Below are positions 40,360-64,000 of a DNA stretch of 64,000 nt, one piece after another (the first letter of the stretch is position 1; every line of letters begins with the position of its first letter). The notes beneath the pieces are model-generated. The model saw nothing but the letters and a program-made list of their open reading frames with translations, ran no database searches and was not told where the DNA came from. Location: NCBI GenBank assembly GCA_020724585.1, contig DYGS01000001.1, positions 2,893-66,892 on the forward strand. The letters run 5' to 3'. The DNA comes from Candidatus Microgenomatus sp. Lineage in GTDB: Bacteria; Patescibacteriota; Microgenomatia; UBA8517. Made by a program: the position numbers and the translations under genes.

Positions 40360-40899
40360 TCACTGAGGCAATTTTTTGGAAAACCAGTCAATAGCTTTAT
40401 CCAAATTTGATGGCGAGGCTTCCTCTTCAAGAAGATAATCTTTTAAGATTTTCCTTATATCCTCCTTATTTTCAGGTTTTATAACAAGCTCCATTCTGTT
40501 TGGAATTTTTCTTGTTTCAAAGACCAAAAGCTCTGTATCGTATCTCTTTGAAAACCAAAATCTTGTCAACATCTCCCATGGAGTTGCCCCTCCTGCAATT
40601 TTTACTCCCCTATCTGTGATTTTGTATTCAATAACCTCCGGTTCGACAGTTGACATAACATAATAGAGGAAAATTAAAGAAATTATAAGAATTACAGGCA
40701 TCGCCCCCTCTGCCAAAAACAAAATCAAGGAAACTATTCCTGCAATCGAAACAGTGGTTAAATAAAACTGCCTATCTCTTCTTTTAAATGGCCTTGAAGG
40801 TGCAATCCAAATCAATAAATCCTTTTCAAGTTCAGGCTTTTTGAATTTTGAAGTCTCAGCCTCATTACTCGAATTATTATTGGCAATATTATCACTCAT
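40360..40899 (-). CDS. hypothetical membrane protein (start trimmed to MSDNIANN)
   Basis: Two adjacent TM helices. The longer track ORF would run into tRNA-Ser(GCT). Confidence 0.4.
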   Translation of the reverse strand: MSDNIANNNSSNEAETSKFKKPELEKDLLIWIAPSRPFKRRDRQFYLTTVSIAGIVSLILFLAEGAMPVILIISLIFLYYVMSTVEPEVIEYKITDRGVKIAGGATPWEMLTRFWFSKRYDTELLVFETRKIPNRMELVIKPENKEDIRKILKDYLLEEEASPSNLDKAIDWFSKKLPQ

Positions 40900-40940
40900 A
40901 TCTAAATTATACCTCAAGTCTGATATAATTGCCTCTATTG

Positions 40941-41027
40941 GTGGGGTCGCATAGCCCGGTCCATTGCGGAGGTTTGCTAAATCTCTGAGCTGAAAAGCTC
41001 GCGCAGGTTCGAATCCTGTCCCCACCG
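40941..41027 (+). tRNA. tRNA-Ser (anticodon GCT), class II
   Basis: Acceptor ggtgggg/ccccacc, anticodon stem gaggt/atctc with loop tTGCTaa, variable-arm hairpin gagc-tgaaaa-gctc, T-arm gcagg-ttcgaat-cctgt, discriminator G. Confidence 0.75.
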
Positions 41028-41086
41028 CTCATATACATTCGCGATGTGGACAGTTTCGATGGTGCCAAGTAAAGAAAATGCACGGC

Positions 41087-41104
41087 GAATCCTGTCCCCA
41101 CCGC
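41087..41104 (+). repeat. exact 18-nt duplicate of tRNA-Ser(GCT) 3' end (gaatcctgtccccaccgc) followed by CA
   Basis: Identical to 41011-41028. No matching 5' half is present, so it is a fragment rather than a tRNA. Confidence 0.75.
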
Positions 41105-41123
41105 CAGTTCAATATGATTAAAA

Positions 41124-41205
41124 GGAAGGTGGGCAGGACGGTAATGCGCGAGTCTTGAAAACTCGTGAGCGTAAGCTCTAACAGGTTCGACCCCTGTACC
41201 TTCCG
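41124..41205 (+). tRNA. tRNA-Ser (anticodon TGA), class II
   Basis: Acceptor ggaaggt/accttcc, anticodon stem cgagt/actcg with loop cTTGAaa, variable-arm hairpin gagc-gtaa-gctc, T-arm acagg-ttcgacc-cctgt, discriminator G. Confidence 0.75.
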
Positions 41206-41211
41206 CAAAAT

Positions 41212-41245
41212 TAAGCCTAACTGGCAATAGTTAGGCTTTTTATAT
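41212..41245. terminator. bidirectional rho-independent terminator (taagcctaac-tggcaata-gttaggctt with T-runs on both strands)
   Basis: 10-bp stem hairpin between convergent tRNA-Ser(TGA) (+) and comF (-). T-tracts follow on both strands. Confidence 0.6.
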
Positions 41246-46767: not shown

Positions 46768-46798
46768 TAAGTAATTATAACAACTTATCTGCTATAAT

Positions 46799-47365
46799 TT
46801 GCTTACGAAAATCGCGAATATGAAAATTGCGAAAAAAATATTAATTAGTCTGGTTTTAGTTTTTACAGTTCTACTTAAATTTTCAACTACTCCAGCATAT
46901 GCAATCTGTAGACAGTGGGTTCCATCCCAATGTGCGGCTGTTAGATGCAATGTTGGTGGAACTTGGCATTGCTGTGACACCACATCTGAATGTACTGCAC
47001 TCAACGGTTCGCCTATGCAAAATAACCCTGGAGGTAGCGTATATAATCCCAATCCATCTAATTCCAATCCAACATGCAATGGAGGTAGTGGTATTGACAC
47101 GGCAATAGGTTGCATTCCTGTTGAAGATACTAATTCCTTTATGGGCTGGATATTGGGTTGGGCAATTGGAGTTGGTGGCGGAATTGCTTTTTTACTAATT
47201 GTTTATGCCAGTTTTATGATAATGACTTCTCAAGGAGATCCTACAAGACTAAAGGCGGGACAAGAACTATTAACATCTGCAATTTCAGGCCTTATAATGC
47301 TTATCTTTTCAGTCTTTATACTTAAATTTATAGGAATTGATATACTTAAATTAGATAATTTATAA
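46799..47365 (+). CDS. pilin-like two-TM hairpin protein with N-terminal Cys-rich extracellular domain (array member 1 of 8)
   Basis: Signal/TM, Cys-rich 80-aa domain, then a TM-loop-TM module with MTSQGDPTRLKAGQELLTSAISGLIMLIF shared with the seven downstream paralogs. Confidence 0.6.
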   Translation: MLTKIANMKIAKKILISLVLVFTVLLKFSTTPAYAICRQWVPSQCAAVRCNVGGTWHCCDTTSECTALNGSPMQNNPGGSVYNPNPSNSNPTCNGGSGIDTAIGCIPVEDTNSFMGWILGWAIGVGGGIAFLLIVYASFMIMTSQGDPTRLKAGQELLTSAISGLIMLIFSVFILKFIGIDILKLDNL

Positions 47366-47367
47366 AT

Positions 47368-47691
47368 ATGTTTAATTCTGATAATTTAAATCAAATTCAA
47401 AACATCGGCCTTCCCACATTCACTTTTAGAGAGGGAGGGCGAACCACTGGAATTTCAAGAATTTTTCCAGTTATCCTCCCCTACATATTTGCCGCTGCGG
47501 GTATTATTTTAGTTTTTAACCTAATTTCTGCAGGTTTTAGGCTAATGACATCTTCAGGCGACCCTAAGGCAACCGGCGCCGCGCAAGCCAAAATTACAAC
47601 ATCATTAATTGGAATTTTAGTTATTTTTGTATCTTTTTGGGTAGTTAAACTTATTTTGCAGTTTTTTGGAATAAATATACAATTAATATGA
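47368..47691 (+). CDS. pilin-like two-TM hairpin protein (TrbC/VirB2-like), array member 2
   Basis: TM1 - MTSSGDPKATGAAQAKITTSLIG - TM2 architecture. Stop overlaps the next start. Confidence 0.6.
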   Translation: MFNSDNLNQIQNIGLPTFTFREGGRTTGISRIFPVILPYIFAAAGIILVFNLISAGFRLMTSSGDPKATGAAQAKITTSLIGILVIFVSFWVVKLILQFFGINIQLI

Positions 47692-47999
47692 ATAAACTTG
47701 CAGTTGATATCGGACAGCAATTTGTGGGAAACAATCCAAATTTAACTGATCCCAACAATATAAATAAAATTACAAAATCATTAATAGGTGGGTCACTCTC
47801 GCTGGCGGGAGTGTTGCTGCTTTTTATTTTGATCTTAGGCGGGATTGGAATGATTAGGGGTGCGGGAAATAACGACCCTAAAATGGTTGAGCAAGGCAAA
47901 AAAGCAGCAACTTCAGCTCTAATCGGTTTTATAGTTGTATTTACATCCTTTTGGATAGTAAAATTGATTGAACAAATTACGGGCTTAGTGTTACTTTAA
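47688..47999 (+). CDS. pilin-like two-TM hairpin protein, array member 3
   Basis: RGAGNNDPKMVEQGKKAATSALIGFIVVF loop/TM2 motif. Confidence 0.6.
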   Translation: MNKLAVDIGQQFVGNNPNLTDPNNINKITKSLIGGSLSLAGVLLLFILILGGIGMIRGAGNNDPKMVEQGKKAATSALIGFIVVFTSFWIVKLIEQITGLVLL

Positions 48000-48004
48000 A
48001 AAAT

Positions 48005-48376
48005 ATGGAAAATTTATCGGTACGGCAACTCCTTGCACAAACAAACCCATTTGGGACTGTAGATTTGCCCGCGGGCTTACAAGCCTATGGAAAAGAGCCT
48101 GGACCTGCTATAGGAAAATTGATACAGTTCTCTCTTCGAGCACTAGTTGTTGGTGCAGGTCTGTATGCCCTATTTAATCTGGTTTTGGCCGGTTATTCTT
48201 TTATGAGTGCAGGAGATGACAGTAAAAAAGTGGCCGCCGCCTGGGCACAAATATGGCAAACAATGTTAGGCCTGGCCGTTGCAGCAGGAAGTTTTGTCCT
48301 GGCAGCAATCTTTGGCCAAATCTTATTTGACGATCCTATGTTTTTACTATCACCAAAAATAGAAACACCAAATTAA
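48005..48376 (+). CDS. pilin-like two-TM hairpin protein, array member 4 (divergent)
   Basis: MSAGDDSKKVAAAWAQIWQTMLGLAV loop motif. Confidence 0.55.
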   Translation: MENLSVRQLLAQTNPFGTVDLPAGLQAYGKEPGPAIGKLIQFSLRALVVGAGLYALFNLVLAGYSFMSAGDDSKKVAAAWAQIWQTMLGLAVAAGSFVLAAIFGQILFDDPMFLLSPKIETPN

Positions 48377-48377
48377 C

Positions 48378-48746
48378 ATGAATAAAATTGCAGCAACATT
48401 AGATTTTTCAAACGGAGGATTAAAGGGTTTTGGAGCATTGGGATTAGAACAAAACCAAGCTAGTGAGTCGGTTTTTCAAGTTTTTATTTCTTCAGCCATT
48501 GGTATTATTAGTTTTGTTGCAATAGTTTGGTTTGTTTTCATAATCGTCACAAGTGGAATTTCATACATGAACGCTGGAGCTGATGCTAAAGCAGCCGAAG
48601 CAGCCAGAAAACGTATTACCAATGGTTTGATTGGTTTACTAATAACAATCTTTGGAATATTCATAATTAATTTGACAGGACAAATATTCGGCATCAAAAA
48701 TGTCTTAAATGTACCTGAAATGATTAAAAATTTAATTATTAAATAA
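48378..48746 (+). CDS. pilin-like two-TM hairpin protein, array member 5
   Basis: MNAGADAKAAEAARKRITNGLIGLLITIF. Confidence 0.6.
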   Translation: MNKIAATLDFSNGGLKGFGALGLEQNQASESVFQVFISSAIGIISFVAIVWFVFIIVTSGISYMNAGADAKAAEAARKRITNGLIGLLITIFGIFIINLTGQIFGIKNVLNVPEMIKNLIIK

Positions 48747-49123
48747 TGACGAACAACTTACTAGCTGGTGGTGGTGTTCCAAATACCATAACCAATCCAA
48801 TTTTTAAGGGAAGTATTTTTGACGCCATGATTTCAACAGAAGATGGTGGATATATTTTTTTTGGTACAGTTATTCCCAATCTAGTTGGTCTAATTTTTGT
48901 TGCAGGCGTGGTTGTTTTTATCTTTACATTTTTAATTGGAGCGTTTTCCTATATAATTTCCGGGGGGGACAAAACCAAGGTTGAAGGGGCAAAAGGTAGA
49001 ATTACTAGCGCACTTATAGGTATTGTTTTGCTATTATCTTCGTTTTTAATAATACAGTTGGTTGAAACATTTTTCAAAATAGATATTTTAACTATTGACA
49101 TAGGTCCATTGGTTATTCAATAA
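48746..49123 (+). CDS. pilin-like two-TM hairpin protein, array member 6
   Basis: ISGGDKTKVEGAKGRITSALIGIVLLL. Confidence 0.6.
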   Translation: MTNNLLAGGGVPNTITNPIFKGSIFDAMISTEDGGYIFFGTVIPNLVGLIFVAGVVVFIFTFLIGAFSYIISGGDKTKVEGAKGRITSALIGIVLLLSSFLIIQLVETFFKIDILTIDIGPLVIQ

Positions 49124-49135
49124 TACTTATTAGAT

Positions 49136-49486
49136 ATGAAGGATTTAGCAACAACAGCTTATTTATTAGCAGAGGAAAAAATCAATCTTCAGCCTGGCAA
49201 GGGAATTGCAGGTGAATTACAAGGTTTAAAACTTGACAACTTAGTTGGTGGTTTTCTAAATCTTATTTTGGTATTAGCCGCGTTGGTTTTCTTCTTTATT
49301 TTGGTTATAGGTGGAGTTAAATATATAGCTTCTGGTGGTGACAAAACCCATACTGAGGCTGCTCGAAGTCAAATTACAGCTGCTTTAATAGGTTTAGTTA
49401 TAGTTTTTGCAGCTTGGGCAATAGCTTCACTTATTGGAACATTCTTTGGAATAAACATATTCCAACTTGAAATACCAACAGTTTAA
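49136..49486 (+). CDS. pilin-like two-TM hairpin protein, array member 7
   Basis: ASGGDKTHTEAARSQITAALIGLVIVF. Confidence 0.6.
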   Translation: MKDLATTAYLLAEEKINLQPGKGIAGELQGLKLDNLVGGFLNLILVLAALVFFFILVIGGVKYIASGGDKTHTEAARSQITAALIGLVIVFAAWAIASLIGTFFGINIFQLEIPTV

Positions 49487-49534
49487 CTAATTCTTCACTT
49501 GTTCAAATATCTAGTTTAAGTTACACTAATTGTT

Positions 49535-49819
49535 ATGCAGCCACCAACATTAGACAAATTAGAAGGTGTTTTTACAAATTTAGTTTCAACACTTGTTGCA
49601 ATTGGTGCTTTTGGGCTTTTAATTATGCTTCTTTTGGGTGGTTTTAAATATTTGACATCCGGGGGCGATCAAAAAGCCGCCGAGGGAGCAAAAAATACTC
49701 TATCATATGCAATTGGAGGATTTTTGCTTCTCGCGGGTTCTTACTTAATTCTAAAAATCATTGAGAAAATTACAGGTGTGACTGATATTACACAATTTAA
49801 AATTTTTAAAGCTAATTAA
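49535..49819 (+). CDS. pilin-like two-TM hairpin protein, array member 8
   Basis: TSGGDQKAAEGAKNTLSYAIGGFLLLA. Confidence 0.6.
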   Translation: MQPPTLDKLEGVFTNLVSTLVAIGAFGLLIMLLLGGFKYLTSGGDQKAAEGAKNTLSYAIGGFLLLAGSYLILKIIEKITGVTDITQFKIFKAN

Positions 49820-49829
49820 TAAATGTCTA

Positions 49830-52313
49830 ATGAAAAACCTGTCTAAATTATCCTACTTCCTTTTATTTTTTCTATTTTTTGCCTTACTTATTGCCCATTA
49901 TTTGTTGAACACAACTATTGCTAAAGCTCAAGTTCCTGGTTTGAAATTTCCCTGCGATCAAACTGATGAGAATGAATTTAACACACTAAGACCCTACCAA
50001 GCCTCTCCATGTTCGGATGGCCCAAAAGCACTTTTCTGCAGTAATAAATTAGTAATTTTTGAAAATTTTCAACTAAAGGAAGAATGTAGAAGCCAGAAAA
50101 CTGGTTGTCCTAACTGTGACTGGACCTGTAACCTAAATTACCAGGTTGAGCCGCACAATTTAAATATCACACTTGACGAATCCGAATTACCAATCATGGG
50201 AAATACCCAAGATGATTTTGACAATGCCACAAAACTTAACGAATATGCCAGCTGGTATTTATCAGGCATTGATAGCACCGGTTCAACGGGCGAAACAACA
50301 GATGATCGAGTTGTCAATTTTTCAGGTCCAATTAACAAACTTTTGCCCCAAATGATACAAGATGCCGAAAGAAAAAGAACAATAGCTAGGGCCACAAATG
50401 AAAGGGAATATACAACCGATGACGATCAAGGTAAGTCAAGCCAAGTTACTTCTGTTGAAATGCATAACCAAATAGTTGCTTGCGGCGATGTATTCAAACT
50501 TTTTGGAATTTGGGATATCGGCCAGATTAAGCCTACTGATTGCTATAACGGCAATGAAAAAATAAGATTAAAGGACTGGATTGACGGAGATTTGTCTGAT
50601 TTTAATAAACTCATAAACAGGCTGGGCGGAGATGTCTGGAACAAGAGATATCCCCCTCTACCTTGGGCAGATGAAAATAATAAACCTTTTGAAAGCCAGA
50701 CAGCTTACCAAAAAGCATATCGAGAATGGAGAGGAGCATCTTGCATTACTATTCCAGGTATTGATAAAAATCTCTGTTTAGATAACCCTTTTGTACCAAA
50801 CAAGTGGGCTAAACTTTATCCCTATATACCTCTTTCATCTACAACCGATGTTGAAGGAAAAAATTATCTTTTAACAGGAGATGGACCGAATTATGTTCCG
50901 TCTCAAGGTACAGGGATTGAGAATGCACAGCATAAAAGTTATAAAAACGCCCCTCTCTATTTACCCCATTTACAGGAAGTCTATGACCTATCACAAATTT
51001 TGAATAAAACTTTTAGGCCGCAAGAATATGAAAGTGAGCCCTTACCCAAAACAACAGAGAAACTCAAAAAAGGTATTTCCACTAAAAGCGAAGATCTTTT
51101 GGGGCGTAATTCTGACCCAAAGCCAAATGACCAATTTGCATCCAGAGATCCCTACTCAACACTAGATTGCTCAGCAGTAAATGTTAGGGTAAATGAAGGG
51201 GATGATATTTTCCCGGGTGATAGACCAAGCGAACAAGAATTGTATGTTGAAGGAGTTGAGTACACAATCACTCAAGTTGAGTGCCATGAAGAAAATAGAA
51301 TAGAGTGTTTGCCAATTGGACCAGACCCAATACCCTGTACACGAAGAACAATAAATATACTAAATTGCCCCGCCCAAGTTGGAATAGAGTTTAAACTGGG
51401 GACAAAAACTCCACTTGCTGATGAAATTTTTTCTCAAACAGTTGCAGATTCAGGCAGTACCTTTAGAAAAATATTTCCAAAAGTAGAAGAGGGTGCCCCA
51501 GTTGAATGTATTGCAGATATTCCAACAACAACAAATGTAACATATAGCATTGATAACCCATTACACCAAGTTCCTGCAGGCGGTGAACAAGAATTCAAAC
51601 AAACATCATATCCAGCTGATGGAGCAAACAGTGGAACACAACTTACATTCCCCCACATAGGTTCTGTCTATGAATACTTTTTAAAAGGAATTCAAACCGC
51701 CTTAAGGCCAAAAGGTTTTGGCGAACCAATAGCAAATGGAAATTGTAAACCAACTGAGGAGGAAGAAGAATCAACATGTAAGGAAGATGTCCCAGACTCG
51801 GCAGTAAACAATAAATATTTGGGTCAATTCAAAACTAATTTTATTGATTTAGCAAACAGATGGAGTCAAAAGTGTCCTGGCGGAGAAAACAATATGGCTG
51901 AAAAATGCTACAATTTTGTAGCAAGTGAGGCCCAAAAGGCGGGTGTTAATCCAGCTTTTGTTTTAACAATCTGGCTCAACGAATCGGGCGCAAGTAACTA
52001 TTGTGAAGGAGGTACAACCACTCAAGACTTTGGTATGAACCTTCCATCAATTTATCAAAACATTTCCGAGCAACTTAAAAAGTTCTTAGATTTTGCTAAA
52101 GTAAAGTGGTGTGATGGACAGTCGGGTTTTGTTGAGCCCATGCATGGGTGGCTTAGTAGATTTCAAAGTTCTGCGGGAGTATGTAATCCAAACGATCCAG
52201 TTGCAACACAATACTACCATGATGTTATGAATACCACATGGAGCTGGGTTACTGGATGCACTACTGGAGGTAAATTTGGAATTCAGTGGCCCACAGATGG
52301 AAACTGTCCGTAA
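49830..52313 (+). CDS. large secreted Cys-rich protein with possible C-terminal lysozyme-like (GH73/glucosaminidase-like) domain
   Basis: Signal/TM anchor, many paired Cys throughout. C-terminal AFVLTIWLNESGAS...DFGMN resembles the E-S-G ... F-G motif of GH73 muramidase/FlgJ-like domains (tentative). Confidence 0.45.
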   Translation: MKNLSKLSYFLLFFLFFALLIAHYLLNTTIAKAQVPGLKFPCDQTDENEFNTLRPYQASPCSDGPKALFCSNKLVIFENFQLKEECRSQKTGCPNCDWTCNLNYQVEPHNLNITLDESELPIMGNTQDDFDNATKLNEYASWYLSGIDSTGSTGETTDDRVVNFSGPINKLLPQMIQDAERKRTIARATNEREYTTDDDQGKSSQVTSVEMHNQIVACGDVFKLFGIWDIGQIKPTDCYNGNEKIRLKDWIDGDLSDFNKLINRLGGDVWNKRYPPLPWADENNKPFESQTAYQKAYREWRGASCITIPGIDKNLCLDNPFVPNKWAKLYPYIPLSSTTDVEGKNYLLTGDGPNYVPSQGTGIENAQHKSYKNAPLYLPHLQEVYDLSQILNKTFRPQEYESEPLPKTTEKLKKGISTKSEDLLGRNSDPKPNDQFASRDPYSTLDCSAVNVRVNEGDDIFPGDRPSEQELYVEGVEYTITQVECHEENRIECLPIGPDPIPCTRRTINILNCPAQVGIEFKLGTKTPLADEIFSQTVADSGSTFRKIFPKVEEGAPVECIADIPTTTNVTYSIDNPLHQVPAGGEQEFKQTSYPADGANSGTQLTFPHIGSVYEYFLKGIQTALRPKGFGEPIANGNCKPTEEEEESTCKEDVPDSAVNNKYLGQFKTNFIDLANRWSQKCPGGENNMAEKCYNFVASEAQKAGVNPAFVLTIWLNESGASNYCEGGTTTQDFGMNLPSIYQNISEQLKKFLDFAKVKWCDGQSGFVEPMHGWLSRFQSSAGVCNPNDPVATQYYHDVMNTTWSWVTGCTTGGKFGIQWPTDGNCP

Positions 52314-52321: not shown

Positions 52322-53155
52322 TTAGATAGTTATATAATACTTCCCCCCACTTTCAGTAATTAAGCCTTTTATACCCATAATTGAAAGTGTTGTTCCTGTT
52401 TCCTCAATCCTCATTCCTGTTTTTCTTGCAATTTCGTCAATTTCCAATGGCTCAAGTTGTAGAATTTTATAAATTCGTTCTTCCTGTTTTGGCAGTTCTG
52501 GTCTATTTTTAATTTGTAATTTGTCATTTATAATTTGGCATTCCGCGATATCCTTCGCGGCCGTTGCCATCTTTGCATCTCCACTTTTAATTAATTCGTT
52601 ACACCCTACAGATACTCTTGAATTAATAGGCCCGGGAATTGCCCAAACTTTTTTACCTGCCTTTTTAGCTAGTTTGGCAGTTACCAAACTTCCACTGTTT
52701 TCACTTGCCTCAATAACCAAAACTCCAAGTGAAGCAAGATTTACAACTACTTTATTTCTTTGAGGATATTTCCACATACTAGGTTTAGCATTATCCTCAT
52801 ATTCAGAAACAATTGATCCACCTGATTTTATAATCTCATCATATAACTTTTTGTTTTCGGGTGGATAAATATGGTTTAGACCGCAACCAAACACTGCAAT
52901 GTGTTTTCCCCCATATTCCAATGTTTTTAATGCGACTTCTGTATCCACACCATACATAAAACCAGAAATTGTAGTTATGCTATTTGCAACTAAATCACAA
53001 ACAAATTTATCTACAACATCCCTTCCATATCTTGTCATCTGTCTACTTCCAACAATTGCAATTGAATTGGCAATTAAATTATTTGGATCCTCCCCACGAT
53101 AATTTAACTTCTTTTTTGTCTTCCCTGTTTTAATCTCTGTTGTTTTTGTTTCCAT
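52322..53155 (-). CDS. dprA: DNA-processing protein DprA (Smf)
   Basis: IAIVGSRQMTRYG...GFMYGVDTEVALKTLEYGGKHIAVFGCGL Rossmann-like DprA core. Confidence 0.85.
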   Translation of the reverse strand: METKTTEIKTGKTKKKLNYRGEDPNNLIANSIAIVGSRQMTRYGRDVVDKFVCDLVANSITTISGFMYGVDTEVALKTLEYGGKHIAVFGCGLNHIYPPENKKLYDEIIKSGGSIVSEYEDNAKPSMWKYPQRNKVVVNLASLGVLVIEASENSGSLVTAKLAKKAGKKVWAIPGPINSRVSVGCNELIKSGDAKMATAAKDIAECQIINDKLQIKNRPELPKQEERIYKILQLEPLEIDEIARKTGMRIEETGTTLSIMGIKGLITESGGKYYITI

Positions 53156-53168
53156 AATATCAACTAAT

Positions 53169-53237
53169 TGTCATTGCGAACGCAGTGAAGCAATCTATTG
53201 TTGTGGATTGCCATGTCGCAAGCTCCTCGCAATGACA
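53169..53237. repeat. 11-bp inverted repeat (tgtcattgcga ... tcgcaatgaca) with 47-nt spacer between dprA and yraN
   Basis: Perfect reverse-complement arms at 53169-53179 and 53227-53237. Confidence 0.6.
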
Positions 53238-53242
53238 CAGAT

Positions 53243-53647
53243 TCAAAAACTTATATTCTCGTAATGAGTTATTCTGCCCGTCTCCTCTACTATACAAATT
53301 GCATCTATTTGATACCTGTCATAAGTTTTGGCGATATCAGGGTTATTTAATAAATACATTTCCGCAGTTCTTTGAACCTGCATCAACTTATTTTTTCCTA
53401 TCATTTCTTCAGGCGTTCCATAATCTTCTGTTTGTTTAAATTTAACTTCCACAAAAACCAAAATCGCCTGCCCTGAGGGCATTCGGCTGAGCTCAGTCGT
53501 AGCCCCTGCCCAACGTGTAGCAATAATATCTAATTCACCAAATTTGGTTGAATTATTTTGGTCAATTATCTGATAGCCATGGTCAATTAGCCATTTAACT
53601 GCTAATTCTTCGCCTTGATTTCCTTTTAACCTATTAAATTGCTTCAT
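53243..53647 (-). CDS. yraN: YraN-family (UPF0102) endonuclease
   Basis: GEELAVKWLIDHGYQIIDQN...GELDIIA motif. Confidence 0.75.
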   Translation of the reverse strand: MKQFNRLKGNQGEELAVKWLIDHGYQIIDQNNSTKFGELDIIATRWAGATTELSRMPSGQAILVFVEVKFKQTEDYGTPEEMIGKNKLMQVQRTAEMYLLNNPDIAKTYDRYQIDAICIVEETGRITHYENISF

Positions 53648-53739
53648 GTTGACAAATTGTGTATAATGCAGTTAAGGTAAGCCGAGAGTTAAGCGGAACC
53701 CACGCGTAAAAGCGGGTGGTGATGTCGACAACTTTCGGT

Positions 53740-54201
53740 TTATTTTTTTAAATTCCAATACTTTATAATGTCTTCGTATTTTAAAACTAGCGCTTTACTC
53801 TTGTCTTTTCTTCTGTGAATACTCCACGCCAATTTATGTGACGGAGAATGTTTTCCAACTCTGACAAAAAATATTTGTGGTTTATTAATAATCTTTGAAA
53901 TTGCAAATAATTTGTATATTGTTTCTTTTATAAATTTATCTCTATTTGAATATTCCTCGTCAATTTCTAATTTAGTTATGTTTTTACTGAATTTAATTAT
54001 CAATATGAAGATCATTGTTGCGAACACTGTTTGAATTAAATCCGACCGTGCAACAATTGTTTTTCTTAAGAACTTTACTAATTTTATTTTTTCTGAAACA
54101 GATATATAAACTGCGCCGCAAAAATGGTTGGCGAGAGAAATAACGGTGTGGGTGTTTAAGTGTTCTAATTTTCCACTTTGATCAACTTCAGCTTTCATCA
54201 T
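53740..54201 (-). CDS. hypothetical protein
   Basis: 153-aa ORF translationally coupled (ATGA) to comM. Confidence 0.35.
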   Translation of the reverse strand: MMKAEVDQSGKLEHLNTHTVISLANHFCGAVYISVSEKIKLVKFLRKTIVARSDLIQTVFATMIFILIIKFSKNITKLEIDEEYSNRDKFIKETIYKLFAISKIINKPQIFFVRVGKHSPSHKLAWSIHRRKDKSKALVLKYEDIIKYWNLKK

Positions 54202-55757
54202 TATTCATTTCTAACACGATATTGCAACGCTTCAGCAACATGATTTGGAAGAATCCGATTGGTTCGGCTTCGCTCACCACCCTCAGCTACGCTGAGGTCT
54301 GCAATTGTTTGGGAAACTTTTATCAGTCTAAAATAAGTTCTGGCTGATAGATTATATGTATTTACAGCTTGTTTAAGTAAAACTAAAGCTTCCGGAGCAA
54401 TATCAACAAATTCCTTAATGTGTTTATTTTTCATGTTGGCATTGGTATAAAATGACAAGCCTTTAAATCTTTTATTCTGAATTTCTCTAGCCTTAACCAC
54501 TTCTTCTCTTATTTGTTTTGAGTTTTTAGCTATTCGCTTTTCGCTATTCGCTATCAGCTTATTAACATCGACAGCTGGTACATTCAAATGCAAGTCAATT
54601 CTATCCATTAAAGGTCCAGAAAGTCTTGATTGATAATTCATAACCATTCTTGGTGTACATATGCATTCTCTTTTGGGATCACCCAAGTAGCCACAAGGGC
54701 AAGGGTTAGCGGCCGCAATTAACATAAAACTTGCAGGAAAATTAACACTTCCTGCAATTCTGGTTATTGAAACCTTTCTATCTTCCAAAGGTTGTCTTAA
54801 GGCTTCCAAGGTTCCTCTTGAAAACTCAGGAAACTCATCCAAAAACAAAACTCCATTATGGGCAAGCGATATTTCCCCCGGATGTGGGTTTGTTCCTCCT
54901 CCAATTAAGCCTATTAAACTGGTTGTGTGGTGTGCAGTTCTAAATGGACGATTTCGAATTAACCCCTCTCCTGCAGGAATAAGCCCTGAAACAGAATAAA
55001 TTTTAGTAACTTCTAATGCTTCATCTTCGTTTAAAGGTGGCAATATACCTGCCGTGGCCCGAGCCAGCATTGTTTTACCTGCCCCAGGAGTTCCAACTAA
55101 AAATATATTGTGTCCTCCCGCAGCTGCGATTGTCATTGCTCTTTTTGCCGACTCTTGGCCAATAATTTCTGCAAAGTCAAACTCGACAGAACAGTACTCA
55201 GTACTTAGTACAGAGTACTTAGAACTTTTGATTTTCTCAATTTTCTTCAATCCATTTAAATGTGCAATTAATTCTGAGAGTGATTTAACAGGATAAACAT
55301 CAATTCCAGATAAAACTGATGCTTCATTGGCAGATTCACTTGGGACAAAAACACTTTTAATCCCCTTTTGTTTTGCAGCCAGTCCTAAAAGAAAAACTCC
55401 TTTGGTATGTCTTAGTCCTCCATCAAGTGAAAGTTCACCATAGAAAAAACTTTTTTCGATCGGTAACTTAACAAGTTCCATTGAAGCCAAAATTCCAATT
55501 GCGATAGGAAGATCATACAAAGATCCCTCTTTGGGAATATCAGCAGGAGCAAGATTAACTACAATTTTCTGATTTGGAAAATCAATGTCTGAATTTAAAA
55601 TTGCAGTTTTTACTCTTTCTTTTGCTTCTTCTATAGATTTATTGGGAAGTCCAATTATTGAAAATCCGGGGAATCCTTTTTTGAAAACATTAACTTCAAC
55701 CTCAATTAAATTTGGAGTTAATCCAAAATGCGACGCCGAAAGTATCTTCGTGAGCAT
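54201..55757 (-). CDS. comM: YifB/ComM-family Mg-chelatase-like AAA+ ATPase (competence protein ComM)
   Basis: N-terminal Lon-like domain, Walker A GTPGAGKTMLA, and the C-terminal ChlI-like region. Confidence 0.85.
   Translation of the reverse strand: MLTKILSASHFGLTPNLIEVEVNVFKKGFPGFSIIGLPNKSIEEAKERVKTAILNSDIDFPNQKIVVNLAPADIPKEGSLYDLPIAIGILASMELVKLPIEKSFFYGELSLDGGLRHTKGVFLLGLAAKQKGIKSVFVPSESANEASVLSGIDVYPVKSLSELIAHLNGLKKIEKIKSSKYSVLSTEYCSVEFDFAEIIGQESAKRAMTIAAAGGHNIFLVGTPGAGKTMLARATAGILPPLNEDEALEVTKIYSVSGLIPAGEGLIRNRPFRTAHHTTSLIGLIGGGTNPHPGEISLAHNGVLFLDEFPEFSRGTLEALRQPLEDRKVSITRIAGSVNFPASFMLIAAANPCPCGYLGDPKRECICTPRMVMNYQSRLSGPLMDRIDLHLNVPAVDVNKLIANSEKRIAKNSKQIREEVVKAREIQNKRFKGLSFYTNANMKNKHIKEFVDIAPEALVLLKQAVNTYNLSARTYFRLIKVSQTIADLSVAEGGERSRTNRILPNHVAEALQYRVRNE
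55191..55225 (+). repeat. GTAC-rich short repeat inside comM coding sequence (encodes ...SKYSVLSTEYCS... on the minus strand)
   Basis: acagtactcagtacttagtacagagtacttagaac shares k-mers (agtacagagtac, gtacttagtac) with intergenic copies at 62075, 63346 and 63875. Confidence 0.6.
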
Positions 55758-55818
55758 TATAAAAAAGTATGATACAAAATATTACAAATTACAACCATTT
55801 GACAATAATATATAGTTT

Positions 55819-55855
55819 ACAGTATACTGTTCCTAGTGTACTAGGAACTAGGAAC
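55819..55855 (+). promoter_or_regulatory. tandem palindromic operator-like sites upstream of the HTH-PRTase gene
   Basis: Perfect 12-bp palindrome acagtatactgt (55819-55830), then a 9-bp inverted repeat gttcctagt-gt-actaggaac (55829-55848) and an extra taggaac half-site. They lie 6-40 nt upstream of the ATG at 55861. Confidence 0.5.
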
Positions 55856-55860
55856 TTTTT

Positions 55861-56832
55861 ATGACTACGAAGCTAAAGATATTACAATATTTGAATCGAA
55901 AGGGCGAAACAACAGGTAATGAGCTCTCAAACCATTTAGGTCTATCTGACAGGGCAATTCGAAAACAGTTGAAAAACTTGATTGAAGAAGGAAAAATTTC
56001 GAAAATAGGAATTCCTCCCAAAGTCTATTATTATTTAAGTGAGAGGAAAATGACAAAAGATACTCCATATTTAGATAAAAATACTGAAGAATTTATTAAT
56101 ACCAACTATTTATACATTTCTCCAATTGGCGAAAGACTTGATGGAGTAGCGGGATTCGTAGAATGGTGCAAAAAAACAAACCAATCCGTAGAAAAAACTG
56201 CAAAAAACTATGTTGAAACAATTAATAAATATTACAAGTTCAAAAGGCATGGGTTGATAAATGGAACATTAAAATTAAAAAATACATTTCAAAGAACTGG
56301 CCTTGAAAAACTTTATTACTTAGATTTTTATTCAATTGACAGGTTTGGGAAAACCAAACTTGGACAGATGCTTTTGTATGCAAAACAAAGTCAAAACAAA
56401 GCATTAATGAAAGAGATATCTACAAATATTCGTCCAAAAATTATGAGGTTAATTAAAAAACTTAATATCACAAGCATTGGGTTTATTCCCCCAACTGTTA
56501 AAAGACAATTCCAATTTATGAAAGAGTTGCAAAAAAATCTTAGACTTGATCAAAATATAATTACAATTTCAAAAGCAAAAATACCTTACATGACACCGCA
56601 AAAAACACTAACCAAACTTGAGGATAGAATAGAAAATGCAAAAAAAACAATAATCGTGGAGGATAATAATAAACATAAAAATATTCTTTTAATTGACGAC
56701 GCAGTTGGTTCTGGAGCAACATTAAATGAAACTGCTTTACAAATCAAAAGAAAAAAACTTTGTACAGGTAAAATCTACGGACTAGCAATAGTCGGTAGTT
56801 TTAAAGGTTTTGATGTAATCAGCGAAGTGTAA
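55861..56832 (+). CDS. winged-helix HTH domain protein fused to phosphoribosyltransferase (ComF-like PRTase) domain
   Basis: N-terminal ETTGNELSNHLGLSDRAIRKQLKNLIEEGKI (wHTH) and C-terminal ILLIDDAVGSGATLNE PRTase motif. Confidence 0.55.
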   Translation: MTTKLKILQYLNRKGETTGNELSNHLGLSDRAIRKQLKNLIEEGKISKIGIPPKVYYYLSERKMTKDTPYLDKNTEEFINTNYLYISPIGERLDGVAGFVEWCKKTNQSVEKTAKNYVETINKYYKFKRHGLINGTLKLKNTFQRTGLEKLYYLDFYSIDRFGKTKLGQMLLYAKQSQNKALMKEISTNIRPKIMRLIKKLNITSIGFIPPTVKRQFQFMKELQKNLRLDQNIITISKAKIPYMTPQKTLTKLEDRIENAKKTIIVEDNNKHKNILLIDDAVGSGATLNETALQIKRKKLCTGKIYGLAIVGSFKGFDVISEV

Positions 56833-56862
56833 TTAAATTCAAAATATTGTATTATATAACTA

Positions 56863-57267
56863 ATGCCTAACCTCAATACAACTAATAATTTAAAGCTAAG
56901 AACTAAGAGCTTAAAATCAAATAGCCTCAGAGATAGAACCTTTGACTTTTCTATTCAAATAATTAAATTAATTTCTAATTTTCCAAACAAAACTGTTTAT
57001 TGGAAGATTGGAGATCAATTATTGCGATCAGGAACAAGTATCGGTGCAAATGTTACAGAAGCTCAGGGCTCATTATCTAAAAAAGAATTTATTAGCTTTT
57101 ACCATATAGCTTTAAAAAGCGCCAAAGAAACTGTTTATTGGCTTGAGATACTGCAAAAGTCTAACTTGATTAAAGAATCAGAATTATCTTGGTTTATTGA
57201 TGAATCAAACCAATTAGTTAAAATGCTTACATCGAGTATACTTACATTAAAGAGAAATTTGAATTAA
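56863..57267 (+). CDS. four-helix-bundle protein (TIGR02436-type, 23S rRNA intervening-sequence protein family)
   Basis: GDQLLRSGTSIGANVTEAQGSLSKKEFISFYHIALKSAKETVYWLEIL signature. Confidence 0.7.
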   Translation: MPNLNTTNNLKLRTKSLKSNSLRDRTFDFSIQIIKLISNFPNKTVYWKIGDQLLRSGTSIGANVTEAQGSLSKKEFISFYHIALKSAKETVYWLEILQKSNLIKESELSWFIDESNQLVKMLTSSILTLKRNLN

Positions 57268-57276: not shown

Positions 57277-58935
57277 ATGAAAATAACTAAAATGCATTTT
57301 GTAAAAAAAATTGTTCTGATATTAATGTCTTCACTATTAGTTCTTAGTTCTTCGCTATTAACTCCTGCCATGGCAATGGCAGCCGACCCCGCCCCAAGCA
57401 CTTGGTACAATCAGGGTTTTACTGACTGGTATTCAAAAGTTTACGGCGACGAATCCCCCCCATCTGAAATTTTTGGAGAAAGATATACTGCAGCCCAAGT
57501 TCAATGGATTTTATATTCACTCTTTGCGTTTCCAATTAATTTTTTGGGTAGTAAAGTACAAGGTGCTGTAGCTTGTCTTTACGCTTTTGGACCCGGAAGT
57601 GTGTTTGATAAAACTGCTTGTATTCAACAGACTTTAGAAGCAGCTGGTGACGCTTTTCAGGTACTAAAAATTACAACATCTGTGGGCAACAACACAACAG
57701 AAACTAAAAGTTTTGCTAGCGCAGTATTCCAAGGATATAATAATAGGCCTGTTTCTGGTATAAAATATTTGAACGATACATTTTTTAGACTAAACATTAT
57801 TCAAACAGCCAATGCACAAGGATTTGGATATACCACCGCGATCGATGGTTTAAAAGAATATTGGCAAGGTTTTAGAGATATTGCATATGCCTTATCTGTA
57901 TTGGTAGTTATCATCTTTGCTTTTATGATAATGTTTCGAGTAAAGCTGTCGCCACAACTAGTTATTTCGGTTCAATCAGCCTTACCTAAAATTGTGGGCG
58001 CATTAATATTAGCGACATTCTCATATGCCATAGCAGGCTTTGTGATAGATCTTTCTTATGTTGTGGGTGGGTTATTCGCCTCACTAATGTCACTTGCTGG
58101 TTTTGCACAGTCAATACAAGGTCAAGGGCCAGCGCAAGCAAGTGCTTTTCAAAATGCATTTAATCAAATTATGCCAATTCAAGGAACTCAGGCTGTGGGG
58201 GGTTTCTATATACTTATTTGGATGTTTAGTTATACTATCGTCTTTTTCTTTGCAGCTGCATGGGCACTAATAAGTACAATTTCAGGGTTGTCTGTTTACG
58301 GTGTTTTGGCGGGAGTTTTAATGGTATTACTTACAATTTGGTTACTGATTTTAATGCTGTGGTACACCCTAAAAGTTCCTTGGGTCTTATTAAAAAACTT
58401 AATCAGTTTGTTTGTGTCGATTATAGTTGCACCGCTTCAAATAGTAATTGGGGCACTGGTTCCCACAATTGGTTTTGGGGTATGGTTTAAAAAGATTATT
58501 GCAGAAGCGCTTGTGTTTCCTCTTACTGGTCTATTTATGTTTTTGGCCTTGAAAACGCTTATGGCTTCTTTCGCAGCCAGTACTGGACAATTTTTACACT
58601 ATGAAGACGGCACATTATGGACACCTCCCATTTTAGGATCATCTGAGGATATGGCAGGCATAATTTGGCTATCTGTAAGTTTTGTTTTTATTACTATGAT
58701 TCCAAAGGCAGTTGATATAATGAAGATGCTTATCATGGGTGCCAAATTTGACTTTGGAAGCGCAATTGGTGAAGCTGCACAACCTCTAACTGGTGCATTA
58801 AGACTTTCCTCGGCCATAGGAAATATTGGGAAAGAGATTTCTACAGGGTGGGGTTTTCTTAACCCTAAATCAGACCAAGAAATTGGTGGTGCTAGCAGTC
58901 AGAAAAAATGGTGGGATCCAAGAAAAAAGTCTTGA
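57277..58935 (+). CDS. secreted/polytopic membrane protein (signal peptide, ~200-aa extracytoplasmic domain, then about 6 TM helices; VirB6/TrbL-like topology)
   Basis: Hydrophobicity pattern only. No named motif, so any VirB6/TrbL assignment is an inference. Confidence 0.4.
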   Translation: MKITKMHFVKKIVLILMSSLLVLSSSLLTPAMAMAADPAPSTWYNQGFTDWYSKVYGDESPPSEIFGERYTAAQVQWILYSLFAFPINFLGSKVQGAVACLYAFGPGSVFDKTACIQQTLEAAGDAFQVLKITTSVGNNTTETKSFASAVFQGYNNRPVSGIKYLNDTFFRLNIIQTANAQGFGYTTAIDGLKEYWQGFRDIAYALSVLVVIIFAFMIMFRVKLSPQLVISVQSALPKIVGALILATFSYAIAGFVIDLSYVVGGLFASLMSLAGFAQSIQGQGPAQASAFQNAFNQIMPIQGTQAVGGFYILIWMFSYTIVFFFAAAWALISTISGLSVYGVLAGVLMVLLTIWLLILMLWYTLKVPWVLLKNLISLFVSIIVAPLQIVIGALVPTIGFGVWFKKIIAEALVFPLTGLFMFLALKTLMASFAASTGQFLHYEDGTLWTPPILGSSEDMAGIIWLSVSFVFITMIPKAVDIMKMLIMGAKFDFGSAIGEAAQPLTGALRLSSAIGNIGKEISTGWGFLNPKSDQEIGGASSQKKWWDPRKKS

Positions 58936-58944: not shown

Positions 58945-61014
58945 TTATCTACTTCCAACTAAACCAAGAGCGTTTGCGATTGAATTGCCCATTCTAATCA
59001 TAGATCCAATTCTCTGTAGTGTTTTTGCATCTAATTGACCCGACTGATCATTACTTCTAAGCATTTTTATAAGGTCATTATAGTTATCCTCAGCAAACGG
59101 ATTATCCGCTATTGTAAAGGAAATATCTCCACCTTGTAAAGCTTGTAAATGTCCTTGTTTATAGTTAAATTCTGGACCAAGCAAAAAACTCCTAGCCTCA
59201 TAAAGAGGTCTCGTTTTTGACTCAGGGTCAAAAACAATTTTAAGAGCATCGCCCTTATCTGGTGGTTTCGTCTCAAGAGTACTTGCCAATATTTTGGCTT
59301 CTAGAATTCTAATTATCTGTGCACCGGCAATGTCTCTCCCTATCTCACCATCAACTTCTTGGGTACCTAATACCTGAGCACATAACCTCTCTGCTTCTAA
59401 TAAATCATTTAATGCCGGACCGCTCCAAAGAGAAAGATTTTGAGCCATTGGACCACCTGTAATTTTGTTTATCATTTGAGATTGGCGATTAAGTATTTTG
59501 ATATTTGTAACAGCAGAGGCTATTGGCAATCTTATGTTAGGAGGTAGGTCCTTCCCTTCTTTTTCTTCATATAATTCCTTAATCACATTATAAATATCTG
59601 TTGGTCGGAAAGCACTATCTAACATATCTAAAACAATTGAGGCAGAATTTTTATACACACTTTTTAATCTCTGTAATCCTGTTGGGTGTATCACAAAATC
59701 AAAAGGGTCACCACCCCAACCTTTTGGAATCGGCTGTAATTTACTAGGCTTATTATGTAGATCAGATTTATTAACAATATCTACATATTCAGTCCACTTA
59801 TCAACCAAAAAGATGTCGCAAGCGAGCTTTGCTGCCGCTCTCGTAACTCTCGTGTCCATCTCAGCGGTTCTAACCTCTTTTACAAGAACTTTGTCTATAT
59901 AAGCATCAAGTCCACCCTGTCTAGCCTCATCTTTAACAAAATGAATAACTCCATTTGCATTCATATTTATTTTGTCGCTATGAATTGTAATCTTTCTTGG
60001 TGTTTGGTTTTTATCGCCATGCCATTCGCTTTCTCCGTTTTGTTCAATTCCTAAATCCTCCATTAATCTGTCGTAATATTTTCTTATCAAAGGATCATTT
60101 AATAAATTTATTATTTTGTTTGGATCAGCATGTAGCAAATATGCATCATTCTCGTCCTGCCATCCGATATTTGGAGAGCCTTTCTCATTGCTACCAGTTA
60201 AAATTTTTGCATAATCTTCAAATGCACCACCTGATATTTCCATCGCCCTTGCAGAAGCAGTCACTGCCATTGATGCTCTTAAAAATTCATTCGAACTTTC
60301 TAGTTCTGTATTTGTAATTCTTGCACCCTTTTCCTTTGCAACATGTAAGTCCGTTTCATAATTTAAGGTTGCACTTAGCCATCCAGCATTCATTCTTGCG
60401 TTTTTTAAATACAATGAATTAAAAGCATATAAATTTCTAAAAACAAACTTCCGTCTATCTGATTGTTTTTCTGGGTCCAATCTAACAACTAATTCGGGTG
60501 AAACAAGATACGGTTCATTCTGTCCATTTTTAAAAACAGCACCGAGGTATAATGGTTGATCTCTCGCCGGTATTTTTTCTCTGTCATGGGCTACAGTAAC
60601 AACTGATGGGGTATTTCTTTCGTTTGCTACCAATAATTCTTGTCTTTGTTCGATGCGTTCCATCCACAATGCAGCCTCGCCTAAATCTAGACCCTCCTCA
60701 ATCATTTTATCAATCTCATCATGTATCTTCATTAAATAATCTGAATTCACGGATATATCACTTCTACGGGCCAATAATCTTATTTTCATTCGAAGTTTTG
60801 GATCATTTATGTCGTCGAACTCCTTCATGTCTCGCACTAACCAACTTGCCCATTTTTCATCATCTTTACCATTAATTCTACCTTTGTCAAGATTTGCCTC
60901 TATATCTTTACCTATTTCAATTGAACGAGAGATGTTCATTTCAGACCCAACTAATTTAGTAGCCCCACCCACATTGAATTTAACTGGATATTCAGTCGCT
61001 TCTGCCATATTCAT
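58945..61014 (-). CDS. hypothetical large protein (689 aa)
   Basis: Long ORF with no Walker motifs or TM helices recognised. Confidence 0.4.
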   Translation of the reverse strand: MNMAEATEYPVKFNVGGATKLVGSEMNISRSIEIGKDIEANLDKGRINGKDDEKWASWLVRDMKEFDDINDPKLRMKIRLLARRSDISVNSDYLMKIHDEIDKMIEEGLDLGEAALWMERIEQRQELLVANERNTPSVVTVAHDREKIPARDQPLYLGAVFKNGQNEPYLVSPELVVRLDPEKQSDRRKFVFRNLYAFNSLYLKNARMNAGWLSATLNYETDLHVAKEKGARITNTELESSNEFLRASMAVTASARAMEISGGAFEDYAKILTGSNEKGSPNIGWQDENDAYLLHADPNKIINLLNDPLIRKYYDRLMEDLGIEQNGESEWHGDKNQTPRKITIHSDKINMNANGVIHFVKDEARQGGLDAYIDKVLVKEVRTAEMDTRVTRAAAKLACDIFLVDKWTEYVDIVNKSDLHNKPSKLQPIPKGWGGDPFDFVIHPTGLQRLKSVYKNSASIVLDMLDSAFRPTDIYNVIKELYEEKEGKDLPPNIRLPIASAVTNIKILNRQSQMINKITGGPMAQNLSLWSGPALNDLLEAERLCAQVLGTQEVDGEIGRDIAGAQIIRILEAKILASTLETKPPDKGDALKIVFDPESKTRPLYEARSFLLGPEFNYKQGHLQALQGGDISFTIADNPFAEDNYNDLIKMLRSNDQSGQLDAKTLQRIGSMIRMGNSIANALGLVGSR

Positions 61015-61210: not shown

Positions 61211-61573
61211 TTACTTACTTACGCTCTTTATAAGCCCAGCCAACATTCTAGATATCTCCTCATTTCTAGCCACGAACTCCTTTACTTTGTTTCTGTCAAA
61301 TTCTTTCATCTCTGCAATTATTTCCAACCAACAACCGGTTTCGTAATTTGAGCCCCTTGCAATATCTAAAAATAGTTTAAAACTTTTCTTGGAGTTTCTT
61401 CCGTAACCTTCTGCAATATTTGCAGGAATTGATCCAACCGCACGAAATAATTGATTTAAAAGAAACTGCTTTGGAATAGGCAATTTATAATCTGAAAAGT
61501 GTTGAATAATATCAACTGTTAATCGTTTTGACTTTTGATATACAAGAAGTTCTTTGTGTGAAGTTAAACTCAT
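61211..61573 (-). CDS. four-helix-bundle protein (TIGR02436-type), second copy
   Basis: LVYQKSKRLTVDI...AVGSIPANIAEGYGRNSKKSFKLFLDIARGSNYETGCWLEI. Confidence 0.7.
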   Translation of the reverse strand: MSLTSHKELLVYQKSKRLTVDIIQHFSDYKLPIPKQFLLNQLFRAVGSIPANIAEGYGRNSKKSFKLFLDIARGSNYETGCWLEIIAEMKEFDRNKVKEFVARNEEISRMLAGLIKSVSK

Positions 61574-62043: not shown

Positions 62044-62088
62044 TTGTGAAAATGTCGGTCTAGTTGCACCAAAAGCAGTACAGAGTAC
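62044..62088 (+). repeat. 45-bp direct repeat A flanking the AAA ATPase gene (ttgtgaaaatgtcggtctagttgcaccaaaagcagtacagagtac)
   Basis: 41/45 identical to 63314-63358. Confidence 0.75.
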
Positions 62089-63906: not shown

Positions 63907-64000
63907 CGTCTTCGACGCATGGAACAACATCCAATACCGCAACAGATAAGTTCATATCAGTTTAAGCTGGTTGGGGATATGACTTTAAAACAGTTTTTCC

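Follow-up and report, generated by a model that had tools for sequence, protein, structure and literature searches.

A Fixed Set of Eight Pilin-like Genes in a Probable Chromosomal Type IV Secretion Locus of a Woesebacteria/Microgenomates Genome

The stretch of DNA analyzed here in full (the window) comprises 64,000 nucleotides (nt) of a Candidatus Microgenomatus sp. genome (GCA_020724585.1, contig DYGS01000001.1) and contains, at 46820-52313, nine consecutive plus-strand genes separated by intergenic gaps of -4 to +48 nt. Eight of these encode small pilin-like hairpin proteins, and the ninth encodes an 827-residue Cys-rich protein. The region is almost certainly the pilin and envelope half of a chromosomal, origin-proximal Patescibacteria type IV secretion system (T4SS), in the version found in Woesebacteria/Microgenomates. 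This T4SS locus is a member of an already published kind, and the main claim of novelty made for it in an earlier interpretation of the letters alone (the sequence-only reading) fails. That reading overrated the pilin array, as arrays of 2-11 VirB2-like pilin genes have been published for Patescibacteria, 441 of them in 383 assemblies and abundantly in Microgenomatia (PMC12102498, Quinonero-Coronel et al. 2025), and a pilin series together with the T4SS is essential in Southlakia epibionticum (PMC10633639, Wang et al. 2023; reviewed in PMC12857230). Our additions to the published accounts, meaning the papers found on Patescibacteria T4SSs, those of 2023 and 2025 among them, are that the eight pilin genes are ancient positional orthogroups, that the C-terminus of the 827-residue protein has a lysozyme-like fold with an invariant Glu and that a 552-residue membrane protein has a fold match to VirB6.

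The eight co-directional genes (46820-49819, plus strand) encode proteins of 94-188 residues, and the open reading frames (ORFs) exist as the sequence-only reading placed them. They are given below with the promoter-like element that precedes them; bit scores are for Pfam PF18895 (T4SS_pilin), whose gathering score is 26.6 bits.

46789..46797, plus strand: extended -10-like box TGcTATAAT, read from the sequence, in the 52 nt that separate the divergent spoIID and pilin gene 1
46820..47365, plus strand: pilin paralog 1 (orthogroup 1); signal peptide MKIAKKILISLVLVFTVLLKFSTTPAYA, ectodomain with eight Cys, two-helix hairpin; 21.9 bits
47368..47691, plus strand: pilin paralog 2 (orthogroup 2); 20.7 bits; NF045849 E 4.8e-8
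47688..47999, plus strand: pilin paralog 3 (orthogroup 3); 4-nt overlap with paralog 2; 34.1 bits, above gathering
48005..48376, plus strand: pilin paralog 4 (orthogroup 4); weakest match, 13.5 bits; median 60% identity to orthologs
48378..48746, plus strand: pilin paralog 5 (orthogroup 5); 16.9 bits; NF045849 match
48746..49123, plus strand: pilin paralog 6 (orthogroup 6); 32.8 bits, above gathering
49136..49486, plus strand: pilin paralog 7 (orthogroup 7); best family match, 40.5 bits and NF045849 E 2e-8
49535..49819, plus strand: pilin paralog 8 (orthogroup 8); shortest; 34.6 bits, above gathering

Hydropathy scanning and alignment reveal the same architecture in each protein, two hydrophobic helices flanking a short polar loop, and a shared S-G-G-D-x-K...E-A-A-x-x-I-T-x-A-L-I-G motif in which the D and one G are invariant across the eight. 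PF18895 matches all eight proteins (E 2.8e-10 to 0.077), which places the array beyond chance, and four of the matches exceed the gathering threshold. Paralogs 1, 2, 4 and 5 fall below it, yet they are matched over the same region, and all eight are mutually alignable. The NCBIfam model NF045849 (Mbov_0395 family pilin-like conjugal transfer protein) matches six of the eight with a best E of 2e-8, all under its cutoff. These results bear out the earlier proposal, which assigned the small proteins to the T4SS-type hairpins rather than to the type IV pilins; the family search that might have placed them among holins or immunity proteins returned T4SS_pilin. The class III signal peptide of type IV pilins, G-F-T-L-I-E, is absent from all eight, each of which has two hydrophobic helices. 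A Tad or type IV pilus locus was rejected. Paralog 1 has a signal peptide and an 8-Cys ectodomain, and the suggestion that it is a tip or minor subunit is plausible. The mechanical ORF call for this gene begins at TTG 46799; its true start is probably ATG 46820, downstream of the TGcTATAAT box, which by its sequence is the likely promoter of the operon. A consensus promoter/terminator scan, which performed no better than on shuffled sequence, did not list the box, and none of the eight plus-strand pilin genes has a Shine-Dalgarno sequence.

One genome per species was scanned with the family of the 827-residue protein, which gave 65 loci that were annotated with profiles built from the window proteins; synteny counts throughout refer to 66 non-redundant Woesebacteria/Microgenomates loci. 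Across the 44 other genomes that carry eight pilin genes, a gene has its best match in the window paralog of the same position in 345 of 352 cases. Same-position orthologs average 44-62% identity versus ~27% among the paralogs within one genome, and the published survey likewise reports a paralog average of ~25% and a T4SS location near dnaA/dnaN (PMC12102498). Median identity to the window copy is 41-60% for the pilin orthologs, 48% for SpoIID, 59% for SmpB, 31% for the 827-residue protein and 35.5% for the 552-residue protein, so that the pilins are conserved like SpoIID and SmpB and more than the two large proteins of the locus. Arrays that depart from the canonical form keep the order 1 to 8, with extra copies confined to group 1, which is triplicated in two loci (L035 and L038), or group 7, which is duplicated in some genomes; recent duplicates, pseudogenes and shuffled orders were not seen in the related arrays. 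Each hairpin gene represents an ancient orthogroup of its own, and the order of the eight is fixed. This order and the far higher identity among orthologs than among paralogs indicate purifying selection on eight distinct roles. This pattern argues against recent diversification or antigenic variation, and the sequence-only reading, which had proposed antigenic diversification by tandem paralogs, finds no support in it. For Microgenomates the picture is thus sharpened to a fixed eight-part set, not a variable family. Group 7 is a candidate major subunit because it is the most conserved (62% mean ortholog identity) and has the best family match. Group 1 is a candidate tip or adhesin because its members contain Cys in every one of the 45 genomes compared and have an ectodomain that varies in length and Cys count.

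The remaining core genes of the T4SS begin at the right edge of the window. There is indeed no VirB4 inside the window, as the sequence-only reading had stated; its conclusion that the locus is not a canonical T4SS is an artefact of that edge, since PrgI/VirB3, TraC-like and VirB4 genes lie from 63919 onward.

63919..64000, plus strand: PrgI/VirB3-like gene, first 27 codons, cut by the window end

PrgI scores 30.5 bits in Pfam. Past the window end, the same genome continues with a TraC/TrsD-like gene, VirB4, a gene for a 928-residue membrane protein, one for a 192-residue protein, dnaN and dnaA, in this order, the last two ~7-8 kb beyond the edge. VirB4 is 614 residues long (window-equivalent ~65646-67490, starting 1.65 kb past the end), has a Walker A motif and matches P-loop_TraG (113 bits), AAA_10 and DUF87. 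The 234-residue gene before VirB4 (L004 7652-8356, minus strand) is PF26593 TraC-like according to a precomputed annotation, and its position is conserved in relatives. No relaxase, integrase or coupling protein/VirD4 was found among the scanned window ORFs or the five gene products past the window end. The window itself is a low-GC (~35%) housekeeping chromosome with Patescibacteria hallmarks, namely DUF5657 and DUF5673 proteins, several 23S-IVP genes, tmRNA, glycolysis genes, dnaG and rpoD.

Two further observations concern this end of the locus. The 928-residue protein (L004 2950-5736, minus strand; window-equivalent ~67532-70318, plus strand) has an N-terminal coiled-coil and a Gly-rich hydrophobic region (~residues 480-630); its C-terminal domain contains a zinc-metalloprotease-like H-E-L-A-H motif and gives a weak match to Pfam Peptidase_M64. 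GC skew on the plus strand is negative across nearly all of the window (1-64000) and dnaA lies to its right, which makes the minus strand the leading one, so that the pilin operon runs head-on to replication.

The comparison of neighborhoods called for by the sequence-only reading turned up a homologous array with VirB4 in dozens of related genomes. Gene order is near-invariant: comF-like, smpB, a gene for a 468-residue protein, DUF5657, bPH and SpoIID, all leftward, are followed by the eight pilins and the 827- and 552-residue proteins, and then by a large leftward ORF, PrgI, TraC-like, VirB4 and the 928-residue protein. A pilin gene lies directly upstream of the 827-residue gene in 54 of the 66 loci, the 552-residue gene directly follows it in 47, and VirB4 starts at a median of 9.3 kb downstream of it. 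In the window, this order is interrupted by a block assigned by Pfam.

52322..57267: insertion with dprA (minus strand), yraN (minus), a 153-residue ORF (minus), comM (minus), HTH-PRTase (plus) and 23S-IVP (plus)

The dprA-yraN-comM(-HTH-PRTase) block follows the 827-residue gene in 7 of the 66 loci, among the closer relatives of the window. It is a lineage-specific insertion that interrupts an otherwise contiguous T4SS locus and is not part of the system. The sequence-only reading had seen the array as embedded among DNA-uptake genes. The genes are real, as Pfam confirms dprA, yraN, comM, HTH-PRTase and comF-like genes, but the embedding loses its value as functional evidence because the block occupies this site in so few loci.

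The 827-residue protein closes the run of nine genes.

49830..52313, plus strand: 827-residue membrane-anchored protein; one N-terminal transmembrane segment, 26 Cys, β-rich ectodomain, C-terminal lysozyme-like domain
51777..52310, plus strand: predicted peptidoglycan glycosidase domain of lysozyme-like type (GH73/GH23); motifs W-L-N-E-S-G-A-S, which contains Glu718, and D-F-G-(I/M)-N

An AlphaFold2 model built on 41 homologs (mean predicted local distance difference test score 80) shows an N-terminal transmembrane helix and a helical C-terminal domain, with β-rich domains (~residues 60-630) between them. For the C-terminus, a GH73 glucosaminidase is the best fold match, in agreement with Foldseek, and other matches are LytB, FlgJ and the Tn916-like Orf17 wall hydrolase. 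Glu718 is invariant across the 41 homologs; the motifs W-L-x-E-S-G-A-S and D-F-G-I-N may correspond to those of GH73. The C-termini of three distant orthologs match SLT_3 (PF18896) at 33.6-40.1 bits (gathering score 27), and faint SLT matches occur in two of the 41 homologs. At the level of the fold, these data support the C-terminus as a lysozyme-like wall hydrolase and a candidate VirB1 equivalent, whose catalytic domain may be GH73-like or GH23-like. The earlier suggestion of a GH73/FlgJ-type muramidase-like C-terminus thus gains support, and where a non-hydrolase fold would have spoken against it, the modeled fold is lysozyme-like. The first ~600 residues hold 19 of the 26 Cys; Foldseek found no structural relative of residues 40-640 in the PDB, and a PDB search with the full sequence returned nothing. 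All 189 homologs are from Microgenomates, Woesebacteria or Patescibacteria, and none is named. BLASTP shows no relationship to the 928-residue protein downstream of VirB4, and an hhalign comparison of the family with PrgK was not significant.

The gene that in related loci directly follows the 827-residue gene lies, in the window, on the far side of the insertion.

57277..58935, plus strand: 552-residue polytopic membrane protein, candidate divergent VirB6

A hydropathy scan shows a signal/anchor segment and ~8 hydrophobic segments, and the top fold match is TrwI/VirB6. The position, the topology and this best fold match make the protein a VirB6 candidate, and we hold with moderate confidence that it is the likely "missing" VirB6 of Microgenomatia; in the published survey, VirB6 is scarce in this class and VirB1 mostly absent (PMC12102498). 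The earlier description of the protein as VirB6/TrbL-like stands for its polytopic topology and finds no counterpart in TrbL, VirB6 or PrgH sequence or profile matches. Pfam scans of 40 and a further 10 family members gave no match, hhalign against PrgH of pCF10 and against a TrbL-like Bacillota protein was not significant, and a PDB sequence search returned nothing. The family is very large and has no Pfam model, with more than 1,059 matches in one search and at least 3,415 cluster representatives at 50% identity; the matches listed in the exhaustive search of representatives were all close relatives and offered no bridge to VirB6. The 827- and 552-residue families are constant parts of the locus, and profile surveys have overlooked them as plausible equivalents of VirB1 and VirB6.

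The slot between the 552-residue gene and PrgI holds one further protein.

58945..61014, minus strand: 689-residue soluble protein; position of the slot conserved, sequences unrelated between genomes

Among 5.8 billion proteins only six homologs of this protein were found, and a PDB sequence search returned nothing. In 39 of 41 related loci (for example L001 14493-16955 and L002 14977-17322) a single large soluble ORF (580-1076 residues) in opposite orientation occupies the slot. Its occupants belong to at least three families without detectable mutual similarity and may be effector or toxin-like cargo.

The composition and conservation of the locus are what the data describe, and from these we infer its assembly and function. 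The hairpins would insert in the membrane so that the N-terminus faces outward and the K/R-bearing loop inward, a topology that fits the signal peptide and ectodomain of paralog 1. A VirB4/VirB3/VirB6-like platform would extract them into one heteromeric pilus or stalk across the monoderm wall, in which orthogroup 7 would be the major subunit, orthogroup 1 a surface-exposed tip or adhesin, and the other six fixed minor or adaptor subunits, comparable to the sets of minor pilins known from type II secretion systems and type IV pili. Peptidoglycan would be opened by the lysozyme-like domain, either its own or that of a host, in the role of VirB1, and the 552-residue protein would fill that of VirB6. 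Since no relaxase or coupling protein is seen in the examined stretch, the apparatus probably serves host interaction, through export or uptake of molecules at the contact between epibiont and host, and not conjugation. A role in competence is improbable, as the linkage to competence genes is not conserved. We lean toward this explanation as a whole, that is, the T4SS identity, the heteromeric fiber or stalk and the roles of the components taken together. For a single heteromeric filament we see an even chance, and the same for the wall-hydrolase and VirB6 assignments as statements of function. A stronger version is tentative and rather doubtful: that the eight hairpins are obligatory, non-interchangeable parts of one hetero-oligomeric monoderm T4SS fiber or stalk, with an assembly order that mirrors gene order and a host contact made by the ectodomain of the 827-residue protein. 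If true, it would be an architecture unlike known conjugative pili, in which a single VirB2 polymerizes and VirB5 forms the tip.

A number of results weigh against this explanation. The canonical VirB2/TrbC family PF04956, the profile that the sequence-only reading had proposed for checking, gives no match at E <= 0.1 for any of the eight, a 435-sequence pilin profile compared by hhalign with the VirB2 of pTiC58 reaches a probability of 0.3%, and the pilin alignment profile matched no solved pilin in the PDB. Seven of the eight hairpins are without a recognizable cleavable leader; the signal peptide is recognizable in paralog 1 only, and the other seven have 25-45 hydrophilic residues. The hydrolase domain of the window protein has no Pfam match of its own and no sequence match in the PDB, including by an alignment profile search. 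Our own Pfam scan (E <= 0.05) did not reproduce the TraC-like label of the 234-residue gene; the Pfam copy used may lack the PF26593 model. The roles proposed for individual paralogs come solely from conservation and architecture, and no filament has been observed for any Patescibacteria T4SS. The function of these systems is an acknowledged open question, with essentiality established in the sole species tested (PMC11665869, PMC12857230).

The hairpins could instead be membrane-embedded components of a translocation channel, or a short periplasm-like stalk, without forming an extracellular pilus, which we consider possible but not probable. The sub-cutoff NF045849 matches are significant, and the Mbov_0395 family comes from integrative and conjugative elements of wall-less Mycoplasma; the lack of detectable similarity to filament-forming VirB2 and of leader peptides in seven of the eight points the same way. 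Paralog 1 and a homolog from Pontibacillus described below, however, combine the hairpin with a signal peptide and an extracellular Cys-containing domain, the gene of the predicted wall hydrolase accompanies the array, and eight distinct subunits presumably exceed the need of a simple channel. A different view of the number eight is that any of the paralogs can serve as major pilin, which would allow antigenic variation or a change of host strain, a reading suggested for Patescibacteria (PMC12102498) that fits the ~27% identity of the paralogs, the copy-number variation of orthogroups 1 and 7 and the variable length and Cys count of the group 1 ectodomain. We think it improbable, because each paralog has a one-to-one ortholog at the same position in 44 other genomes that is as similar to the window copy (41-60%) as housekeeping neighbors are, and because no recent duplication, gene decay or reshuffling was seen in the arrays.

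A ComB-like machine for DNA uptake, built from the hairpins and VirB4 and working with the dprA, comM and comF-like genes, is unlikely, if a little less so. In its favor, dprA, yraN, comM and two PRTase/ComF-like genes lie in or beside the locus, the comF-like gene is syntenic upstream in many relatives, comF, recG and radA lie near virB4 in Magasanikiibacteriota, and a possible role of the Patescibacteria T4SS in DNA uptake has been put forward (PMC11665869). The dprA-yraN-comM block, however, is present at this site in a small minority of loci and splits the T4SS locus where it occurs, smpB, tmRNA (in the window) and four opposite-strand genes separate the comF-like gene from the array, and in S. 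epibionticum comEC-dependent competence is dispensable whereas the T4SS is essential. Functional coupling to dprA/comM was rejected on the ground that the linkage is not conserved (7/66 loci). There is very little to recommend the last alternative, which takes the small proteins for unrelated two-helix proteins of the holin or bacteriocin immunity type, or the locus for a conjugative mobile element. Size and topology taken by themselves would fit the former, but the matches to PF18895 and NF045849 are specific and the array is linked to VirB4 and PrgI; against the latter, the locus sits in housekeeping chromosome beside dnaA/dnaN, is conserved across the whole class and shows no relaxase, integrase or coupling protein in the stretch scanned. 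Family matches, VirB4 linkage and synteny effectively refute both.

Compared with known systems, the locus resembles the T4SS of the published survey (PMC12102498) in its tandem PF18895 array, its VirB4, PrgI/VirB3 and TrsD/TraC-like genes, its position next to dnaA/dnaN and the lack of a relaxase or coupling protein nearby. It differs from that survey in its fixed VirB6-like and lysozyme-fold candidates and its eight positional orthogroups. T4SSs of the Patescibacteria type are related to MPF-FATA. The T4SS of S. epibionticum ML1 (SEML1_0006-0019) is likewise without relaxase and coupling protein and has lysozyme and peptidase homologs beside virB4 that are reported to be essential. Saccharibacteria have six pilins, with essentiality from transposon sequencing, whereas the window organism has eight, in a locus that is split by the dprA-comM insertion.

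Like the VirB2/TrbC/TraA pilins of diderms, the window hairpins are small two-helix proteins with a short charged loop, encoded near VirB3/VirB4; they show no detectable similarity to that group in sequence or profile and belong to a monoderm organism with no VirB5. Known conjugative pili polymerize a single pilin and have VirB5 at the tip, in contrast to the eight fixed, distinct subunits encoded here. Tandem, divergent VirB2-like genes in a T4SS locus are also found in Bartonella and Anaplasma, where the paralogs are read as antigenic or host-adaptive, whereas the window paralogs are ancient, one-to-one orthologous and in fixed order. A functional analogy, and no more than that, exists with the minor pilins of type II secretion systems and type IV pili, a fixed set of distinct, conserved small subunits from one operon that form one fiber with a major subunit and a tip complex; their fold and assembly ATPase are unrelated, and the window hairpins have no class III signal peptide. 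The 827-residue protein resembles PrgK (pCF10) and TraG (pIP501) as a large N-anchored protein with a peptidoglycan-glycosidase domain in a T4SS operon, and TcpG of pCW3 is a further wall hydrolase of a Gram-positive T4SS. Unlike these hydrolases, it has no CHAP, NlpC/P60 or LytM domain, and its ~600-residue Cys-rich, β-rich ectodomain is without known structural relative.

A parallel outside Patescibacteria is a cluster on a megaplasmid of Pontibacillus sp. ALD_SL1 (NZ_CP062975.1; L072, 340110-364229). It contains, in order, two PF18895 pilins (47.4 and 23.8 bits), a TrbL/VirB6-like gene, a PrgI/TraL-like gene, a gene for a 274-residue protein, VirB4 and a large M23/NlpC-P60 hydrolase. The first pilin has a signal peptide and a Cys-containing ectodomain, as paralog 1 does, and hhalign of a Woesebacteria pilin profile against the Pontibacillus pilin gives a probability of 97% (E 2.7e-11). 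The cluster differs from the window locus in having two pilins and an M23 + NlpC/P60 hydrolase and in being plasmid-borne. The match nevertheless means that the pilin family and its gene order are not confined to Patescibacteria. The cluster is an exception to the statement that "Gram-positive T4SSs lack VirB2-like pilins", and the presence of family and gene order in a Bacillota element bears on the origin of the "Gram-positive pilus" and of the Patescibacteria pilins.

Elsewhere in the window, mechanical ORFs at 40360-41025 and 40907-41227 (minus strand) run into two tRNA-Ser genes (40940-41028 and 41124-41206). The likely start of the DUF5673 protein is further downstream (MSDNIANN...), and the 106-residue ORF is probably spurious. 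Three genes of the 23S-rRNA-IVP family (PF05635) lie at 56863-57267 (plus), 61211-61573 (minus) and 63512-63886 (plus), each bracketed by inverted repeats of tandem ~7-nt units. For example, 63433-63493 pairs with 63875-63912, and the element folds at z = -4.4. In relatives, IVP genes occur at differing sites, even within the pilin array (L020, L029), and they look like small mobile hairpin-flanked cassettes. A 32-nt heptamer stretch similar to these repeats lies inside comM (55190-55221). Finally, a 45-nt direct repeat, 91% identical between its copies (62044-62088 and 63314-63358), flanks an AAA_14/DUF4143 ATPase gene (62119-63267), which suggests that this gene, whose position varies among related loci, is an inserted cassette.

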